Virus record (IMG/VR): IMGVR_UViG_3300020349_000356
Location: 1-42,516 of that record
Length of the DNA: 42,516 nt
Origin: a virus
Taxonomy: Duplodnaviria; Caudoviricetes
Direction: 5' to 3' (one strand)
Made by a program: the position numbers and the translations under genes. Shown piece by piece: positions 1 to 42,512 of this stretch. Every line of letters begins with the position of its first letter. The stretch's first letter is position 1. The notes below the pieces were generated by a model. It searched no databases, had not been told where the DNA came from, and saw only the letters and a program-made list of their open reading frames with translations.

Positions 1-673
1 TTCGAATTTGGTTAGTGCTCAAAACAGAAAAAGATTATATTGGACTAATATCCCGTTTGATAAAAATATTGAGGATAAAAAAATTGTCCTGCAAGATATC
101 TTAGAAGACGGACTATCCGACGAGCGAATGACTAGCAATGGCAAGGCGCATTGTTTAACTGCTAGATATCAAGGCGCCGTTTATTGGAATTCAATTGAAC
201 GTAACCAACGGACAATGGTTCTAATAGATAACCCGACGACATCTCCAACAGGTATGAAAAGAATTGGAATGGCGACTGATATAAACGGGCACGACATTTT
301 AAAGCGTGTTTATTCCGTCGAGGGTAAGTCACCAACGCTTAATGCTCACGGTGGCGGTAATACTGAACCAAAAATAGGCATAGGCGCTCTGAGAGGACGT
401 AAAAAGCCTAATGAAGTAAAGTATAACCAACAATACGAAATGCGCTTTGACGACAAGTCTAACGCTCTTACAAGCGTACAATCTGACAATCACTTAATTA
501 AGCAGGAAACCGACAAATATAGTTGGCGTAAGCTAACGCCTGTTGAATGCGAGAGATTGCAGAACGTACCCGATAATTACACTAACCACGTAAGCAAAAC
601 CCAACGTTATAAAATGATTGGTAACGGTTGGACTATCGGGATTATTAAACACATTTTAGAAGGGATGAAATGA
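1..673 (+). CDS. C5-cytosine DNA methyltransferase, C-terminal part (5'-truncated by window edge)
   Basis: Frame open from position 2 (SNLVSAQNRKRLYW = motif VIII, Q-x-R-x-R); RKLTPVECERLQ (motif IX) and YKMIGNGW (motif X); catalytic PC motif absent from window. Confidence 0.9.
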   Translation, partial: SNLVSAQNRKRLYWTNIPFDKNIEDKKIVLQDILEDGLSDERMTSNGKAHCLTARYQGAVYWNSIERNQRTMVLIDNPTTSPTGMKRIGMATDINGHDILKRVYSVEGKSPTLNAHGGGNTEPKIGIGALRGRKKPNEVKYNQQYEMRFDDKSNALTSVQSDNHLIKQETDKYSWRKLTPVECERLQNVPDNYTNHVSKTQRYKMIGNGWTIGIIKHILEGMK

Positions 674-891
674 CTAAAATATTCGCAAAAATAGTTGACG
701 AGGACGGCGGAAAATCCGTCGTCTTCGGCACCGAAAAAGACGTTCCCGAATGGGAAGAACAATTTCGTGAGTGGGAAGAGGAAGAGGATTTCTCAACCGA
801 CGGCGATAGCATACAGGAAGTAGGAACGACAGACGACGTCGAAAAATTACTTTCTAATATAAACCAACTAATAGAGGACAATTATGAGTAA
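670..891 (+). CDS. Small highly acidic early protein (73 aa)
   Basis: Start overlaps the MTase stop (ATGA); 23 D/E versus 6 K/R. Confidence 0.7.
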   Translation: MTKIFAKIVDEDGGKSVVFGTEKDVPEWEEQFREWEEEEDFSTDGDSIQEVGTTDDVEKLLSNINQLIEDNYE

Positions 892-1075
892 ACCATCGAA
901 TGACAATCAAAAGGACGTCGTAAAATTAAACGTCGTGATCGAAATTGATATCACTAACGAGCCGATATCTAAGTTTGAAAAGCGAGACGACATCCAATTG
1001 AAATCACTTGTAGCGACACACATTCTAAATAATTCTGCGGACGTCATAGACGTAGCGTTGAAGAAAGTTCGTTAG
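884..1075 (+). CDS. Hypothetical early protein (63 aa)
   Basis: GAGG RBS, overlaps upstream stop, ends immediately before hammerhead 1. Confidence 0.7.
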   Translation: MSKPSNDNQKDVVKLNVVIEIDITNEPISKFEKRDDIQLKSLVATHILNNSADVIDVALKKVR

Positions 1076-1076
1076 T

Positions 1077-1136
1077 CGGCGAAACAGGGTGCCCTCGGGT
1101 GCCCTGTCTGTCCCATATAGGGGCACTGATGAGCCG
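1077..1136 (+). ncRNA. Hammerhead ribozyme 1 (type II permutation)
   Basis: Stem II CGGC(1077-80)/GCCG(1133-36); GAAA 1081-84; stem III ACAGGGUGCC/GGUGCCCUGU with 2 GU pairs; GUC triplet 1106-08; stem I UGUCCC/GGGGCA with loop AUAUA; core CUGAUGA 1126-32. Confidence 0.92.
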
Positions 1137-1155
1137 TGAAAGGAGGTGATTATCA

Positions 1156-1371
1156 TTGAGTAATGTTTTATTTCCCGAGCAAGATATCTCGGATTTAAAA
1201 GCTGAACAAACAGAACCCAAAGAATATATGAGTTGGATTGAAGCTCGACGTACGATCGAAGAGGTCATTAACGAAGTTATTGACGCTGAGAGAGACTGCG
1301 TTGGCGGTGGCGCTGCGGAAAGTCGCATCAAGAAAATTCAAGATTCTTGGACTCGTATTTTGCAAGGCTAA
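1156..1371 (+). CDS. Hypothetical early protein (71 aa, TTG start)
   Basis: Strong RBS AGGAGGT at 1141-47. Confidence 0.75.
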   Translation: MSNVLFPEQDISDLKAEQTEPKEYMSWIEARRTIEEVINEVIDAERDCVGGGAAESRIKKIQDSWTRILQG

Positions 1372-1625: not shown

Positions 1626-2696
1626 ATGTCCGTATATAAGAGAAACGATAGTCCGTACTATTGGATGTCATTGCCCGTGGTAGATGACAGAGGGAATATC
1701 GTGAGATACCACAAGCAGTCCACGAAAAGAACACGGTTAGATGAGGCTAAAGAGGTCTTTCGTAGAGCCAACAAGCAGAGCCTTGATGAGGTGCAGCTCG
1801 ACCGACGTAAGAGAATATCAATCGGTGAAGTGGCGAGACAATACATCCTGGAACTTAAGATGTCGGGTCGCCCTGCTTTTAAAGACTATCAATCAATTTT
1901 AAACAAATTATCTCGCCTGGAATTTGACTTGCCGATACAAAGGCTAGACCGCAGCTTTTTACAGATGATCAAACAGAAAAGGATCACTGATGGTTTGAAC
2001 CCGTCGTCAATCAACAATGAAATAACATTTTGGATTGCCTGTTTTAATAAGGCACAAAATGATTATGATTGTGATTTAAACAAACAGAATTTTAAAAAAC
2101 TAAAACTAAAGACGGTGAGAAAAACTAGATATCTATTAGACGGTGAGGAAGAGGATCTGTTCGAACATTTACCGCCGTCGGACTCAAGAGATTTAGTTAT
2201 CTTACTATTAGATACAGGTGCCCGTATCAATGAGGTCTGTTCATTGACGTGGGACTCTGTCGCTGCGGATCTGACTACAATAAATTTTTACAGAACCAAA
2301 GTGCAAAACGAAGGACTCATCTTTACTACAGATAGAGTCAAAGAAGTTTTATCAAGACGTAAGACCAACGGAAGTATTTATGTCTTTCCTTCCAGGTGTG
2401 GAACTAAGCCACGTGGATATTCCACAAGGACTATATGTGACGCTATCGAATTGGCAGGACTGAATGCATACCACAAGGTCGAGCGTTACGGTAAATTTAC
2501 TCCGCATTCTTTTCGTCACACATTCGCATCCCGTTTGGTGCAAGGTGGTGTATCTCTCTATGCGGTAAGTAAACTACTTGGTCATTCTGATATTCAGATG
2601 ACTCAACGGTACGCCCACCTTGTGCCAAATGAAGAGGCCCAACAGGCAGCGGATCTACTGACGAGACGTGCAATTATGAGGTCACGTTATGGCTAA
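1626..2696 (+). CDS. int: Tyrosine recombinase / phage integrase
   Basis: Full catalytic set: TGARINE (R), RTK (K), HSFRH, LLGHS, RYAH (Y); N-terminus resembling an arm-binding domain. Confidence 0.95.
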   Translation: MSVYKRNDSPYYWMSLPVVDDRGNIVRYHKQSTKRTRLDEAKEVFRRANKQSLDEVQLDRRKRISIGEVARQYILELKMSGRPAFKDYQSILNKLSRLEFDLPIQRLDRSFLQMIKQKRITDGLNPSSINNEITFWIACFNKAQNDYDCDLNKQNFKKLKLKTVRKTRYLLDGEEEDLFEHLPPSDSRDLVILLLDTGARINEVCSLTWDSVAADLTTINFYRTKVQNEGLIFTTDRVKEVLSRRKTNGSIYVFPSRCGTKPRGYSTRTICDAIELAGLNAYHKVERYGKFTPHSFRHTFASRLVQGGVSLYAVSKLLGHSDIQMTQRYAHLVPNEEAQQAADLLTRRAIMRSRYG

Positions 2697-3120: not shown

Positions 3121-5619
3121 ATGTCCGAATCAATGCAAACTCAATTAGCCACGTTGTTGAAAGACACGTTCCAAGAAGAAAAGGAACAGGTCAATTTCGA
3201 AATGGCTGCCATCAACGAAGGTGTTGAAAAGTTTCGACGCCTGTTAGTTGATAAACAAACCCGACTCGTAGATACAGGAGTCGGTCGGGAAATTTTTAAA
3301 GATCAAATGTCTTTACTAATTCCTGCCATCAAACGTGAGCAAGAGATTGCTATTGAAGGTATCGCCAACAGTGGACGTGGAGTCCGTCCTGTTTGGTGGT
3401 GGTATCTACCACAGGTAGAAGCAGACAAACTTGCTTACCTTTCCATTAAAAATTTACTGTCTATTCGTATGTCAGATAACGGTTTAGGCAGACCCGCAAG
3501 AACCATTTGTATGAATATCGGTCTAGCCGTAAAGCAACAGATGGAATTCGAAAAATGGTTGCGGGAAAGTAAACAGACGAGCAAGACCACGGGCACTCCC
3601 GACGTGGCAGCTCGTCTGTTGCGAAGGGCTAAGAATTTTAATCAAAGGCAGTGGGGTAATTGGACTCGTAAACTACAAGCCATTGAGACATTGGATTGGA
3701 GACGTGACGTAAAGATGCACGTCGGATCTAAACTATTAAAGATACTGATTGAAGAGTCGGGCGGGTTCTTCGAAATGAAATACGTTCAGATGAGAAACAA
3801 GACTGAGCGTCAAATATTTTTGTCTGAACTTTGTCGTAAGATGATTGAAGATATTAATAATGATATCGGATACAACAGTCCGTCATTGCGACCGATGTTG
3901 ATACCGCCGAGAGGATGGTATTGGGACTTACAGAATAAAAGATATGTCGGTGGATATTATATGATACCGATTGATTTTATTCGTGGTGGTTTACATAAAC
4001 ACACGGCGTCCCTAGAAAATCCATTAGCAAAAGAAACCATCACCGCAGCAAATCAACTTGGTAAGGTTCCTTTTATTGTTGATACAGATATGCGTGATGT
4101 AGCACGTGAGGTCTACAACGCTGATCTAAATCTAATTGAATGTATGCCATCACCAAACGCAGAGAAACTCCCACCGAAATTAGATGATGAGACGTGGGAA
4201 AAAATGAACAAGCAACAACGTGCAGAATATAAATATAATTTGTCAAAGATACACGGACGTAATGCACAGGAGATGTCAAAACGTGAAGCCGTAATTCGTA
4301 AGTTAAAACTTATGGATCAGATTGGTGAGCGTCCTGTGTATCACGTAATTAAATGTGATAGTCGAACACGTATGTATTACGTCACTCCCGATTGGAATCC
4401 ACAGGCTGATAGTCTTGGTCGAGGAACAATGAGGTTCGGCGATTCACAAGAATTAGGTAAGCGTGGATTGTATTGGCTTGGTATCAAACTTGCGAACACA
4501 TATGGTTATGACAAGACGAAGTTTGATGATATGCAGAATTGGGTCAAAGATCATACTGAAGAAATTTTAGACTCAGCTAATCAACCATTCGATGGTAATA
4601 AATTTTGGACAACGGCTGATAAAGAGTTAGAGTTTCTACAAAGCTGCGTGGAATATCGCAATGCTATCAATTCTGAGAATCCCGAAAAATATAAATCCAA
4701 TATAATTGTACACCAAGACGGTAGTAACAATGGACTACAAATTTTAAGTTTGATTGGTCGTGATCCTGTCGGCGCCAGGCTGACCAACTGCACGTCTAGT
4801 CCCGAACGTTTTGATATCTATGACAACGTCGCTGAAGTTGTAAAAGAACTTGTTAATGAAGATATCAAGATGGGATTAAACCTAGACAAGGCAAGGCGTT
4901 GGGTCGGTAACATTACACGTAAGACGGCGAAACGTGCCACGATGACTACAAGCTATGGTGTGACTCCGAGAGGTATACAGGATCAATTAATTAATGATGG
5001 TTTCTGTGACAAACTCGAAGGTGGTCGATTGGAAAATGCTGCATACCTTCGAGATAAATTAGTTATAGCACTCGAACAAACAGTAGTCGCATCCAAACCT
5101 ATAATGGCTTACTTCCAAGAGGTGGCTACTTCACTTGCTGAGTTTGATATACCACTTAAATGGCAAACACCTGTCGGTAGCGTGGTTCAACAATCATATT
5201 GGAATATCGCAAAGTCTGACGTTAAGACGGTGATGGGTTCGTACTTTATGTGGGATGAGAATGCCGAAGGCGGTGGACTGAATTCCAGGAAACAAATGCT
5301 ATCAAGTTCACCAAATGTTATTCATAGTTTGGACGCATCCATATTGCAGAGAGTTATTGTCAGACTAAACAAGAAAGGTGTCCACTGTATTGCAGCCGTT
5401 CACGATTCATTTGGTGTTCATCCTTGTAATGTAGACTTATTGAGAGACACCATTAGAGAAGTGGTCGTTGAGATGTTTAGAGGTGATTGGTTAAGAGAAC
5501 AATTTCATCCTTTTGTTGAAGAAACTTTTTCAAATGGTAAGGTGGAATTACCCGAACCACCAAAACAAGGAGAGTTCGATATTAATGAGGTACTAAATGC
5601 AGAATACTTTTTCGCTTAA
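3121..5619 (+). CDS. T7-like single-subunit DNA-directed RNA polymerase
   Basis: PMLIPPRGW, DSRTRMY, motif A HQDGSNNGLQ, motif B RKTAKRATMTTSYG, PNVIHSLD, motif C VHDSFG, C-terminal YFFA. Confidence 0.98.
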   Translation: MSESMQTQLATLLKDTFQEEKEQVNFEMAAINEGVEKFRRLLVDKQTRLVDTGVGREIFKDQMSLLIPAIKREQEIAIEGIANSGRGVRPVWWWYLPQVEADKLAYLSIKNLLSIRMSDNGLGRPARTICMNIGLAVKQQMEFEKWLRESKQTSKTTGTPDVAARLLRRAKNFNQRQWGNWTRKLQAIETLDWRRDVKMHVGSKLLKILIEESGGFFEMKYVQMRNKTERQIFLSELCRKMIEDINNDIGYNSPSLRPMLIPPRGWYWDLQNKRYVGGYYMIPIDFIRGGLHKHTASLENPLAKETITAANQLGKVPFIVDTDMRDVAREVYNADLNLIECMPSPNAEKLPPKLDDETWEKMNKQQRAEYKYNLSKIHGRNAQEMSKREAVIRKLKLMDQIGERPVYHVIKCDSRTRMYYVTPDWNPQADSLGRGTMRFGDSQELGKRGLYWLGIKLANTYGYDKTKFDDMQNWVKDHTEEILDSANQPFDGNKFWTTADKELEFLQSCVEYRNAINSENPEKYKSNIIVHQDGSNNGLQILSLIGRDPVGARLTNCTSSPERFDIYDNVAEVVKELVNEDIKMGLNLDKARRWVGNITRKTAKRATMTTSYGVTPRGIQDQLINDGFCDKLEGGRLENAAYLRDKLVIALEQTVVASKPIMAYFQEVATSLAEFDIPLKWQTPVGSVVQQSYWNIAKSDVKTVMGSYFMWDENAEGGGLNSRKQMLSSSPNVIHSLDASILQRVIVRLNKKGVHCIAAVHDSFGVHPCNVDLLRDTIREVVVEMFRGDWLREQFHPFVEETFSNGKVELPEPPKQGEFDINEVLNAEYFFA

Positions 5620-5621
5620 TT

Positions 5622-5646
5622 ATTTAGGGCATCCTTATGCCCAAGC
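5622..5646 (+). promoter_or_regulatory. Candidate phage RNAP promoter P2
   Basis: ATTTAGGGCATCCTTATGCCCA directly after the RNAP stop, where the first T7-like class II promoter is expected; 20/22 to P1. Confidence 0.55.
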
Positions 5647-13941: not shown

Positions 13942-13947
13942 ACCATC

Positions 13948-13973
13948 AAATAAAGGGGGGTTCTGCCCAATGG
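13948..13973 (+). promoter_or_regulatory. Candidate phage promoter P3 (start of late region)
   Basis: GGTTCTGCCCAAT shares TTCTGCCCAAT with P4/P5; lies at the replication-virion boundary. Confidence 0.4.
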
Positions 13974-14182
13974 CAATCAAACAAATAACAATAGACGAAG
14001 AGTCTTTTCCTGTTAAATCAACAGATTTAATAGAAATGTTGGATAAGACTTATCCTGCTAGATGTATCAAGAAGGGTGAGTCTGAAATCGAAGCTCATAG
14101 ATATGCAGCAAGACGTGAACTCATAGATGAACTCCTAGTCGCTAAACAAGAATACGAGGAAGGTACAAATGAAGATACGTAA
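13970..14182 (+). CDS. Hypothetical protein (70 aa)
   Basis: Purine-rich RBS; first gene of the virion block. Confidence 0.75.
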   Translation: MAIKQITIDEESFPVKSTDLIEMLDKTYPARCIKKGESEIEAHRYAARRELIDELLVAKQEYEEGTNEDT

Positions 14183-14861: not shown

Positions 14862-16418
14862 ATGGCAGAGACTGCACGTTCTCGTTATGAGACAATGAAA
14901 CGAAAACGTGACCCCTATTTGACTAGGGCACGGGCTTGTGCGGAATTAACTATCCCCGCACTTATGCCACCCGAAGGTCATAACGAGTTTGCAACTCTGC
15001 CCGAGCCTTATCAAGGATTGGGAGCGAGAGCGACCGTTAGTTTGGCGTCACGATTAATGATTGCAATGTATCCACCTGGTAAATCTAGTTTTAAATTAGA
15101 TGTACCGCCAGAGATGAAGATGCAATCGGGAAGTATGTCACTTGATAGCGAAGTAGAACAAGGGCTAGTACTTTCAGAAAAACTAATAGGACAAGAAATA
15201 GAACGATCTCAATGGAGACGATCTACTAATCTTTGTCTACAATATCTGTTAGTTACAGGTAATTGTCTTGAGGTAATGCAACCCGACAATACCATAAGAA
15301 TTTTTAGGCTAGATCAATATTGTGTCAGTCGAGATATGCAGGGCATAGTTAAAGAAATTATTACGGAAGAATATTTATCTCCCGAACAACTTCCCGACAA
15401 TGCTAAGAAATTTGTATCGGCTGATGACTTTAGTCAAAATCGTATACCACTATATACACACATTAAAATTAAACCAAAAGGTGTTGGTTTTGATGTCTAT
15501 CAAGAAATTAATAATAAAGTAATACCCGACTCTAGAGGTGAGTACGAGGTGATTCCATACAACGCACTTAGATATACTGCCGTTGTAGGTGAGGATTACG
15601 GACGAGGTAAAATAGAAGAACACTTGCCCGACTTTAGATGTTTAGATGCATTGTCTAAATCTCTAATTGATGGTGCATCTATGGCATCTCGAAACGTAAC
15701 AATGATCCGACCTAACGCAGCAGGTGGTTTAAACCTGCGTAGAAAAATTGCTAAAGCAGATAATGGTGACATTGTTGTAGGAAATCCCGAAGATATTACT
15801 ATGCTTCAATTCCAAAACAATAACGGAATGCAGTTGTGCGCTGCCGAGATGGAAAGACAATCACGTGAAGTTTCACAGGCGTTCCTAATGGGCGCAGCAA
15901 CAGTGCGTGATTCAGAGCGTACAACTGCTTTCGAAGTAAGACGTATGACTGAAGAACTTGAAGCTACACTTGGTGGAGTTTACTCACAATTAAATCAAGA
16001 TATGCAACAAGCACGTCTAACAAGATTAATTTTACAGATGAAACGAAATGGTCAGCTACCCGATTGGCCCGACGATTTAGTTGAGCCTGTAATATTAAGT
16101 GGGATGGAAGCGTTAGGAAGAGAACAAGCGGTTAATAAAGTACAAGTTGCTTTACAATTCCTACAAGGAATGCCACAGGATATTCTTCCTTATATTAAAT
16201 TTGATGCATTGCTATCTAAAGCATTTCACGGTTTGGACTTGCCCGACGCAGTGAGAAGTCAAGCAGAAGTCCAAGAGATGCAACAAGCACAAATGCAACA
16301 ACAGATGGCTCAAGCAGGGGGTCAAGCCGCTGCACAGGCCGCAGGACAAATGGGCGCTGAAGCCGTAATGCAAGAAGCTATGGCACAACAACAACAACCA
16401 ATGACACCACAGGAGTAA
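14862..16418 (+). CDS. Head-tail connector / portal protein (T7 gp8-like)
   Basis: GEDYGRG, RDSERTTAFEVR, LGGVYS, EALGR. Confidence 0.95.
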   Translation: MAETARSRYETMKRKRDPYLTRARACAELTIPALMPPEGHNEFATLPEPYQGLGARATVSLASRLMIAMYPPGKSSFKLDVPPEMKMQSGSMSLDSEVEQGLVLSEKLIGQEIERSQWRRSTNLCLQYLLVTGNCLEVMQPDNTIRIFRLDQYCVSRDMQGIVKEIITEEYLSPEQLPDNAKKFVSADDFSQNRIPLYTHIKIKPKGVGFDVYQEINNKVIPDSRGEYEVIPYNALRYTAVVGEDYGRGKIEEHLPDFRCLDALSKSLIDGASMASRNVTMIRPNAAGGLNLRRKIAKADNGDIVVGNPEDITMLQFQNNNGMQLCAAEMERQSREVSQAFLMGAATVRDSERTTAFEVRRMTEELEATLGGVYSQLNQDMQQARLTRLILQMKRNGQLPDWPDDLVEPVILSGMEALGREQAVNKVQVALQFLQGMPQDILPYIKFDALLSKAFHGLDLPDAVRSQAEVQEMQQAQMQQQMAQAGGQAAAQAAGQMGAEAVMQEAMAQQQQPMTPQE

Positions 16419-41323: not shown

Positions 41324-41351
41324 TTGACTTTAAGCGAAAAATAACAATAAT
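41324..41351 (+). promoter_or_regulatory. Candidate host sigma70 early promoter
   Basis: TTGACT-16 nt-AATAAT, AT-rich upstream element, about 55 nt before the first early gene. Confidence 0.45.
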
Positions 41352-41379: not shown

Positions 41380-41413
41380 AACGTAAGACTAACGAAAGGA
41401 TTAAAAATGTACG
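41380..41413 (+). repeat. 34-nt leader repeat, copy 1
   Basis: AACGTAAGACTAACGAAAGGATTAAAAATGTACG; 33/34 to 42276-42309. Confidence 0.9.
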
Positions 41414-42204
41414 CTTATAAATCAATTGAGAAAATCACCGACGCAAATATCTCAAAACAGATTAACGAAAATAAATCGTTATTCGAAAAATTCCCGTCTA
41501 AATTAATGAGTATCGACGCCGACGCAAAAACAGTTAAAGGCGACAAAAAGAAAGTTAAAACGGGTATCATTTATTTGACGCCGTCAACAACGTTAAATTT
41601 TTATAATACTTGTCCAATGGCAGAATTGGCGGGATGTCAAAAAGCGTGTTTATATTCGGCGGGACGTGGACGGTTCAACAACGTTCAATTATCTAGAATT
41701 AGAAAGACGTTATATTGGATAGATCACCGTTCGGCGTTTCTAGATCAATTAAAAACGGAAATAATAAAAGAAAGTAAAAAAGCAATTGCGAACGGTTACA
41801 CGTTCGCCGTTCGTTTTAATGGTACTAGTGACATTCGAATTGAAAATTATTTTTGGGATGAAATGGTCGAATTAAATAAAACGTACGGCGTTAAATTTTA
41901 CGACTATACGAAAATAGCGAACCGTAAAATTTTAGATACTAACGTTTATGATTTAACGTTCTCATATAGCGGTATGAATTCGCTTTTTTCTCACCACGTC
42001 GAAACGGCTATTAAAAACGGTATGCGAATAGCCGTCGTATTTCGTGATAAAATATTACCGAAAAATTTTCTAAATATGAACGTTATAAACGGCGACGAAA
42101 CGGACGTAAGATTTTTAGATCCGCAAGGCGTCGTCGTCGGTTTATACGCTAAAGGCGACGCAAAAAAAGACTATAGCGGGTTCGTAGTTGACGCAATAGC
42201 ATAA
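41407..42204 (+). CDS. Gp88-like early protein with Cys triad (radical-SAM-like)
   Basis: CPMAELAGCQKAC, VRFNGTSD, FYDYTK, LTFSYS, GDETDVRFLD, VVGLYAKG. Confidence 0.7.
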   Translation: MYAYKSIEKITDANISKQINENKSLFEKFPSKLMSIDADAKTVKGDKKKVKTGIIYLTPSTTLNFYNTCPMAELAGCQKACLYSAGRGRFNNVQLSRIRKTLYWIDHRSAFLDQLKTEIIKESKKAIANGYTFAVRFNGTSDIRIENYFWDEMVELNKTYGVKFYDYTKIANRKILDTNVYDLTFSYSGMNSLFSHHVETAIKNGMRIAVVFRDKILPKNFLNMNVINGDETDVRFLDPQGVVVGLYAKGDAKKDYSGFVVDAIA

Positions 42205-42261
42205 TGCGAAACGGCGTCCATTGTGACGCCGTCCGTCGATAATATCGGCGCTGATGAGCAT
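42204..42261 (+). ncRNA. Hammerhead ribozyme 2 (type II permutation)
   Basis: Stem II AUGC(42204-07)/GCAU(42258-61); GAAA 42208-11; stem III ACGGCGUC/GACGCCGU; GUC 42231-33; stem I CGUCGAU/AUCGGCG; core CUGAUGA 42251-57. Confidence 0.93.
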
Positions 42262-42275
42262 AGGCAATATTCGGG

Positions 42276-42309
42276 AACGTATGACTAACGAAAGGATTAA
42301 AAATGTACG
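42276..42309 (+). repeat. 34-nt leader repeat, copy 2
   Basis: AACGTATGACTAACGAAAGGATTAAAAATGTACG. Confidence 0.9.
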
Positions 42310-42512
42310 TTTTTATAAAACACATAACGGATTTAGATTTAAGCGATAAATGGTTTTTATCTTTTATTATAAATATTCCGTTATTTTTAATAAATTGCTA
42401 TTTATTAGCAGTTTTTCAAAATGGGTGGATATTAACGGCTACGTTAATAAACGCCTTTATGATACCCGTATCAATGGCAATGGCTTTTATTGTTATTGAT
42501 AATAATAACTAA
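42303..42512 (+). CDS. Small two-TM membrane protein (69 aa)
   Basis: Same leader and RBS as the 41407 gene; two hydrophobic segments. Confidence 0.7.
   Translation: MYVFIKHITDLDLSDKWFLSFIINIPLFLINCYLLAVFQNGWILTATLINAFMIPVSMAMAFIVIDNNN

Follow-up and report, generated by a model that had tools for sequence, protein, structure and literature searches.

Three hammerhead ribozymes between the early genes of a T7-like marine phage

The early polycistronic RNA of phage T7 is cut at intergenic RNase III sites, and in synthetic insulators of the RiboJ type a cut makes downstream expression independent of the upstream sequence. The closest described systems are clusters of type II hammerheads flanking prophage genes, for which Perreault et al. 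(2011, PMC3088659) proposed processing into gene-length mRNAs; they report that three of the clusters cleaved in vitro and one in E. coli, and that 14 of 18 consensus hammerheads were active in vitro. The same paper describes HHphage of the haloviruses HF1 and HF2, an early-region hammerhead with a mapped transcript 5' end no more than 3 nt from the cut. The theta (HDV-like) ribozymes of gut phages are described as processing tRNA 3' trailers (Kienbeck et al. 2024, PMC10879173), and two reviews (PMC6155905, PMC6765202) repeat the processing idea and call the role of prokaryotic hammerheads an open question. Our literature search, with subscription papers mostly outside its reach, found no report of hammerheads in T7-like (judged by title and abstract) or Autographiviridae early regions, of phage hammerhead cuts in metatranscriptomes, or of an alternative structure in prophage hammerheads.

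We analyzed a window of 42,516 nucleotides, the whole of IMG/VR record IMGVR_UViG_3300020349_000356, whose early region contains hammerheads of this kind. The ribozymes are real and likely active, and they are known in kind, the arrangement having been known in phages since 2011. An earlier note made from the sequence alone had offered them as its best candidate for an undescribed system; in this it was anticipated by Perreault et al., who already describe the clusters, the processing idea and the cleavage. The present locus resembles those clusters in having the same core and permutation, several copies flanking single genes or short blocks, a temperate phage with an integrase gene nearby, and the same proposed role. 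It differs in lying in a T7-like early operon of a phage with its own RNA polymerase (although Figure 3 and Dataset S1 of that paper may hold T7-like cases), in a pseudoknot that is weak or absent, in a predicted hairpin that competes for the core, in slots that are conserved while type I and type II copies swap within them, and in an apparent natural RNA end at one of the cuts. HHphage is likewise an early-region element with an RNA end near the cut, but it has a variant core, belongs to an archaeal virus and is a single copy 13 nt before a helicase gene. The RNase III sites of T7 also divide an early polycistronic RNA by intergenic cuts; RNase III, however, needs a host protein and leaves 5'-phosphate and 3'-OH ends, whereas hammerheads need no protein and leave 5'-OH and cyclic phosphate ends. 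Like the theta ribozymes, these would be phage cis ribozymes in place of host RNases, although of a different class and acting on mRNA rather than tRNA 3' trailers. What is new lies in the detail: a third copy, slots whose occupants swap, a competing hairpin particular to the clade, an RNA end that may be a natural cut, and a cultured phage for testing.

The window is a whole assembly that opened inside the early region. Its genes lie on one strand in a T7-like layout with a single-subunit RNA polymerase, SSB, primase-helicase, polA, portal, capsid and terL, as in the Autographiviridae, and because a tyrosine integrase is encoded we read the phage as temperate. The RNA polymerase is only 27-29% identical to its GenBank matches, among the 40 listed, so the phage has no close named relative there. 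Seventeen DNA runs contain fractions of 0.86-0.99 of the window's words; 13 of the 17 are labelled marine, 13 are marked as a possible source of the window DNA, and the phage is widespread in the sea. The contig termini do not overlap each other, and no tRNA gene was found in the window. A 19-nt motif occurs twice, at 1509-1527 before the integrase gene and at 5622-5640 directly after the RNA polymerase gene (0.02 expected by chance), and is a candidate promoter for the phage polymerase. A 43-kb T7-like phage contig (L295; terL 68% to that of the window) is filed within a Bermanella MAG, which may be either a clue to the host or a binning error. The coordinates of the features are collected in Table 1.

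Table 1. Features of the early region and neighboring genes (window coordinates unless a locus is named)
Feature	Position	Strand	Remarks
C5 DNA methyltransferase gene, 3' part	1..673	+	first gene after the third hammerhead
63-aa ORF	884..1075	+	TAG 1 nt before HH2; weak L002 homologue, 33% over 48 aa, E 3e-4
HH2, type II hammerhead	1077..1136	+	predicted cut 1108/1109 (after C1108); RF02276
HH2 competing helix, predicted	1127..1155	+	UGAUGA with UUAUCA 1150-1155
71-aa ORF	1156..1371	+	3' of HH2; L002 homologue after a type I hammerhead, 33% over 49 aa, E 8e-9
Tyrosine integrase	1626..2696	+	context: temperate
T7-type single-subunit RNA polymerase	3121..5619	+	context: T7-like
Sigma70-like early promoter, predicted (TTGACT-16-AATAAT)	41324..41351	+	consensus match only; similar site aligned in L002, L009
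gp88-family gene (PF17338)	41407..42204	+	first long ORF 3' of the predicted promoter
HH1, type II hammerhead	42204..42261	+	core and stem match, Rfam RF02276; predicted cut 42233/42234
HH1 competing hairpin, predicted	42251..42274	+	CUGA with UCGG 42271-42274; GC 42258-42259 with GC 42264-42265
Leader and ribosome-binding site	42276..42305	+	copies the gp88 leader to 93%
Small hydrophobic ORF, 69 aa	42303..42512	+	first gene 3' of HH1
Long bulged hairpins directly after gp88	L313 2576-2625; L312 about 15138-15188; L218 13756-13830; L295 about 13942-13985		

The first hammerhead, HH1, has a stem II formed by 42204-42207 and 42258-42261 (AUGC/GCAU), GAAA at 42208-42211, an 8-bp stem III (42211-42218 with 42225-42232), GUC at 42231-42233, a stem I (42234-42240 with 42244-42250) and CUGAUGA at 42251-42257. 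The TAA of gp88 occupies 42202-42204, its last base being the first base of stem II, and the next start codon is at 42303. HH2 lies between a TAG at 1073-1075 and an AGGAGG at 1141-1146, which is followed by a TTG start at 1156. Against Rfam RF02276 HH1 scored 38.6 bits (E 1.7e-4), above the gathering threshold of 37, and HH2 34.0 bits (E 2.8e-3), below it. These results bear out the earlier note in its complete type II hammerhead at the gp88 stop codon, in the predicted cut after C42233, with which the GUC agrees, and in a second hammerhead with the same context of stop codon, ribozyme and ribosome-binding site; the Rfam search it had proposed placed only HH1 above the gathering threshold. 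Its description of gp88 as the first early gene stands conditionally: gp88 would be the first, being the first long ORF after a sigma70-like site kept in two relatives, but promoter-like matches in the window do not exceed those in shuffles (4 vs 5.5).

HH1 and HH2 were the only RF02276 matches in the window at E<=1 and the only matches in a scan with descriptors for types I to III, which found no type I or III copy; 40 Markov-resampled copies of the window gave no type II match by descriptor. A blastn search of HH1 against GenBank phages gave a single, chance match. Copies whose stem II is flanked by a bulge, as in L224 and L314, escaped the strict descriptor, and a relaxed descriptor underlies the final counts.

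A third copy lies outside the window. Two metagenome loci 99.7% identical to the window (L413 and L382) close a 980-nt gap between the contig ends with a 147-aa ORF, a type II hammerhead (L413 2274-2329) and the start of the methyltransferase gene, so the phage has three hammerheads. Stem II of the gap copy overlaps a TAA, the predicted cut is at L413 2301/2302, and the RF02276 score is 31.9 bits (E 7.4e-4), below the gathering threshold. An exact 30-nt search of viral contigs gave no match to the gap sequence, which came to light in metagenome contigs by way of the hammerhead pattern. One DNA contig extends 454 nt beyond the window end, where it reads into a diverged HH1 copy. The gap copy and HH1 have in common 19 nt around the stop codon and GAAA, a leader motif and an identical AUGC/GCAU stem II.

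The hammerhead core (C3 U4 G5 A6 N7 G8 A9, G12 A13 A14, A15.1-U16.1 and H17) is unchanged in all three copies and, except for N7, invariant across alignment A5. As in type II hammerheads generally, loops close stems I and III, stem II is open and the core-adjacent pairs are intact, and as in the clustered phage hammerheads several copies lie on the sense strand between genes of an operon, here three, each at a stop codon. The predicted cuts fall 27-33 nt past the stop codon and 47-69 nt before the next start, and therefore break no reading frame or ribosome-binding site. A reading of HH1 and HH2 as RNase III sites was rejected, their stems being 6-11 bp around a hammerhead core, as against a double-stranded hairpin of about 20 bp.

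Around HH1, a 40-nt repeat (93%; 41380-41419 and 42276-42315) takes in the ribosome-binding sites and opening codons of both gp88 and the gene after it. A part recurs 3' of the third hammerhead, and the repeat is a possible recombination point for gene cassettes. Many T7-like phages, marine and rhizobial, have gp88 as an early gene, and its protein has near residue 70 a Cys-x7-Cys-x3-Cys pattern that is reminiscent of an iron-sulphur motif.

The seven type II homologues of the HH1 family paired at 119 of 119 stem cells, and 9 of the 17 pairs showed two-sided change, a result matched by none of 500 shuffles; since the homologues are related, this is not to be read as a probability. Nine viral loci with gp88 were compared. 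The three closest (78%; L001, L002 and L009) each have three hammerheads, two of type II and one of type I, in corresponding slots, while the remaining six (61-65%) have none; no Rfam match reached the gathering level in any of these nine, and the three-hammerhead loci score 27-34 bits. The HH2 slot holds a type II copy in the window and a type I copy in L002 and L009, between homologous flanking ORFs, so that the place is kept and the topology is not. The product downstream of the type I copy would start with a 7-nt strand of stem I and form no hairpin by itself; the conserved feature there is therefore not a 5' stem. In L009 an extra gene has come between gp88 and the ribozyme, and the ribozyme still overlaps the new stop codon.

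The slot after gp88 is not reserved for ribozymes. Of 25 distinct 3' contexts of gp88, five have a hammerhead within 4-29 nt, one has it after an inserted gene, and four have a long hairpin instead, namely Mesorhizobium phage Lo5R7ANS and three other loci. The hairpins resemble RNase III substrates, and their role in RNase III cleavage is putative; their z-scores are inflated when windows are drawn around the hairpins, and range from -1.7 to -4.8 in fixed 100-nt windows. The operon is a defined one, its counterpart in T7 being cut by RNase III, and hammerheads of two topologies and long hairpins stand in for one another in its slots. Rhizobium phage vB_RleA_TRX32-1, which is cultured and temperate, has a hammerhead behind gp88 and a relative, Lo5R7ANS, a hairpin there, which makes the question directly testable.

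Hammerheads in T7-like phages were confined to the early region. In 76 RNA polymerase loci we found 14 in the 209 kb upstream of the polymerase gene and none in 724 kb elsewhere, and in 79 terL loci 18 in the 284 kb downstream of terL and none in 550 kb elsewhere; the seed loci L010, L011, L207 and L033 are excluded from these 155. All 32 lie on the early side and on the sense strand, spread over 13 loci, an enrichment that is inflated because early regions hold more intergenic DNA. The survey of related early regions that the earlier note had called for has a divided outcome, hammerheads being confined to the early side and sense strand but most early regions having none. Where at least 2 kb of the early side was present, a hammerhead was found in 5 of 29 loci of the polymerase set and 7 of 41 of the terL set, and the feature is thus dispensable.

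Two of 18 prophage loci were positive by both descriptors, Caballeronia sp. LZ033 with three copies and Mesorhizobium loti LU with one. The only positive among six GenBank phages was TRX32-1 (MW023914). Its type II hammerhead follows gp88 by 25 nt, scores 32 bits and has a predicted cut at about 39627 of the record (L314 5724); a later gene is followed by a weak type I-like match of 22 bits. For the 44 type II copies from T7-like phages, the median distance from stop codon to GAAA is 14 nt (42 measured) and from the cut to the next start 49 nt (39 measured); two of the 44 are spanned by an ORF of at least 100 codons in any frame.

A pattern scan of viral contigs gave at least 126 loci (about 280 stretches by estimate), with a strict hammerhead in 110 and arrays of up to nine copies. 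Of its 80 long-flank loci, one had a T7 RNA polymerase and two more a similar terL, among the matches listed. Judged from these contigs, the arrangement is common in phages and not special to the T7-like ones. Phage loci L024 (7736-10663), L017, L023 and L056 have arrays of seven to nine type II hammerheads, one at nearly every junction between small genes; no T7 RNA polymerase was detected in these four loci. A T7-like phage contig shared with L068 (L207, 3777-5510) has four type II hammerheads in repeated modules, and their pseudoknot covaries between copies (loop UUGGCA with tail UGCCAA, and UUCGCA with UGCGAA).

RNA from natural samples bears on the cut at HH2, the evidence consisting of assembled contigs rather than reads. 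A 208-nt contig of RNA run X18 covers 1109-1313, with three unaligned letters beyond 1109 (depth 6.6, one sample), and so begins exactly at the predicted downstream end of the HH2 cut. Among the 18 contigs listed for runs X18 and X19 (one running off the window end was left out, and 8 of the 12 X18 records are among those listed), unaligned letters, 1-3 in number, occur in eight, and in every case at the 5' side of the + strand (sign test p 0.008); the four contigs of X20 have no overhang. The overhangs appear to be a library tag that marks RNA 5' ends, although the records do not give the library chemistry. With eight such ends, an exact hit on either of two cut sites has a chance of about 0.003. 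The site 1108/1109 is bridged by DNA contigs of X14 and X17, and a DNA contig of X16 also breaks inside HH2, at 1116/1133. A promoter origin of the end was rejected: no sigma70-like site lies nearby on the + strand, and the candidate phage promoter has no occurrences other than those at 1509 and 5622. A stall of reverse transcriptase at the foot of the 11-bp stem III of HH2 (1106-1107) could possibly mimic the end. At HH1 no RNA contig starts at 42234; gaps in RNA coverage (42161-42324 and 991-1108) are not taken as evidence, such gaps being common. The one contig points to an RNA 5' end at the HH2 cut in natural infection.

We consider it probable that the early transcript cuts itself at the three intergenic hammerheads. 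The proposal of the earlier note that the phage processes its own early transcript is well supported by the covariation, by the confinement of hammerheads to early regions and by the one RNA end at the HH2 cut. Transcription by the host polymerase would begin at about 41358 and continue over gp88, two small ORFs, the methyltransferase gene and further ORFs to give a single RNA, and cuts at HH1, the gap copy and HH2 would divide it into four pieces with 2',3'-cyclic phosphate and 5'-OH ends. An upstream piece would keep stem III and the cyclic phosphate of C17, and a downstream piece would start with a paired 5'-OH; this geometry, with stem III on the upstream 3' end and stem I at the downstream 5'-OH end, is as the note had drawn it and holds for the type II copies. 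In this way the phage would probably control how long each early mRNA lasts and how it is translated, gene by gene and with no host nuclease; the cuts might protect the products, destabilize them or gate expression, and the insulator-like protection of both ends that the note proposed is a putative role.

The cuts could, alternatively, serve mainly to shorten the life of the early mRNA and shut the early genes down, much as cleavage of glmS RNA is reported to lead to degradation by cellular RNases (PMC6765202). The strong leaders after each cut, the hairpins that close both new ends in the type II copies, and the assembly of RNA downstream of the HH2 cut from a natural sample speak against it, and we regard it as quite unlikely. 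The ribozymes could also be neutral or slow hitch-hikers of mobile cassettes of stop codon, ribozyme and leader copied by recombination. The 19 nt and leader motif common to HH1 and the gap copy, the arrays of up to nine copies in unrelated phages and the patchy presence would fit this; yet the stems have been rewritten while pairing and core stayed perfect, a type I copy replaces a type II copy in one slot, and an RNA end lies at 1109. These findings make hitch-hiking a very improbable account.

Self-cutting of the early transcript may nevertheless be incomplete. A pseudoknot between loop I and the tail belongs to the consensus of Perreault et al. and speeds type II hammerheads. It was detected in 115 of 186 non-T7 type II copies (distal control, 43) and 17 of 44 T7-like copies (control, 11), and is weak or missing in the clade of the window: HH1 has only 4-5 A-U pairs (p 0.05), HH2 gives p 0.8 and the relatives p 0.75-1.0. 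Since this pseudoknot is common in type II hammerheads but not required, the assignment to type II stands without it. In all eight clade sequences CUGA is predicted to pair with the tail 13-23 nt downstream, as against 32 of 342 other type II sequences, and RNAfold placed this competing fold 1.1-7.6 kcal/mol below the active fold in all eight, tertiary energy being ignored. In HH1 the predicted hairpin and stem II exclude each other; in HH2 the tail strand sits between the Shine-Dalgarno sequence and the TTG start. With a weak or missing pseudoknot and a competing fold of lower energy, cleavage may be slow or partial. Before cleavage the hairpin would rival the active fold and thus make cutting partial, and after it the freed 3' piece would refold its CUGA core and stem II strand into a second hairpin beside stem I, which would block re-ligation.

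Shuffled tails reached the competing hairpin in 18 (HH1), 6 and 3 (HH2) of 100 trials for the three copies of this phage, which is weak, and in none of 100 for the five sequences from relatives, which is strong. Seven aligned copies paired at 47 of 49 cells, with two-sided change at two pairs; these involve N7 and a base of stem II for which covariation with the 5' strand is seen as well, and 135 of 500 shuffles reached the covarying-pair count. An anti-core helix as a feature of all type II hammerheads was rejected, since type II hammerheads as a whole show no enrichment for it. Outside the clade, covariation between N7 and the tail is not relied on (p 0.012 with two of three motif definitions and 0.12 with the third, uncorrected and in related sequences).

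It is tempting to read the hammerheads as two-state ribozymes coupled to translation. A ribosome halted at the upstream stop codon would sit over stem II and GAAA, which would drive the RNA into the competing hairpin (off), and loading of a 30S subunit at the downstream site, in HH2, would free the core (on), so that cutting would report the translation state of each gene. The stop codon lies 4-7 nt before GAAA in all six clade copies measured, the type I copy has its stop codon in loop II so that the core would be translated, and the bias of the competing fold toward the clade and its nearly complete pairing point the same way. Compact genomes, however, place stop codons close to anything, the sequences are seven and related, the shuffle results for the covarying count and for HH1 are weak, type II hammerheads in general show no anti-core enrichment, and the hairpin is equally explained as a fold of the product. 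The coupling to translation therefore seems doubtful to us. We think it similarly unlikely that ribozymes replaced host RNase III punctuation of the early operon in a branch of temperate T7-like phages and, in the present clade, act as two-state switches, with a conserved hairpin concealing the core and ribosomes at the adjacent stop and start codons determining each cut; if true, this would be a natural translation-gated ribozyme and would explain the purpose of bacterial and phage hammerheads.

The competing hairpin bears as well on the idea that pairs of ribozymes excise and circularize genes, the 774-nt piece between HH1 and the gap copy rebuilding a hybrid hammerhead. Their identical stem II strands would permit this and the ends suit ligation chemistry (PMC6765202), but in L002 and L009 no more than 1-2 pairs would form in the hybrid stem II, the hybrid would be blocked by the competing hairpin, and Perreault et al. 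(PMC3088659) report that they sought circular products in other clusters and found none; such excision is highly improbable. Self-processing of the early transcript is the reading that we retain.

Two observations concern related phages. RtcB is the type of enzyme that joins cyclic-phosphate and 5'-OH ends, and a putative RtcB is annotated in phage Lo5R7ANS (KM199771; L313, 9397-9546), no hammerhead being found in the stretch read. A fragment of a tmRNA end (61 bits) at the genome end of another relative (L224, 12361-12440) is possibly an attachment site.
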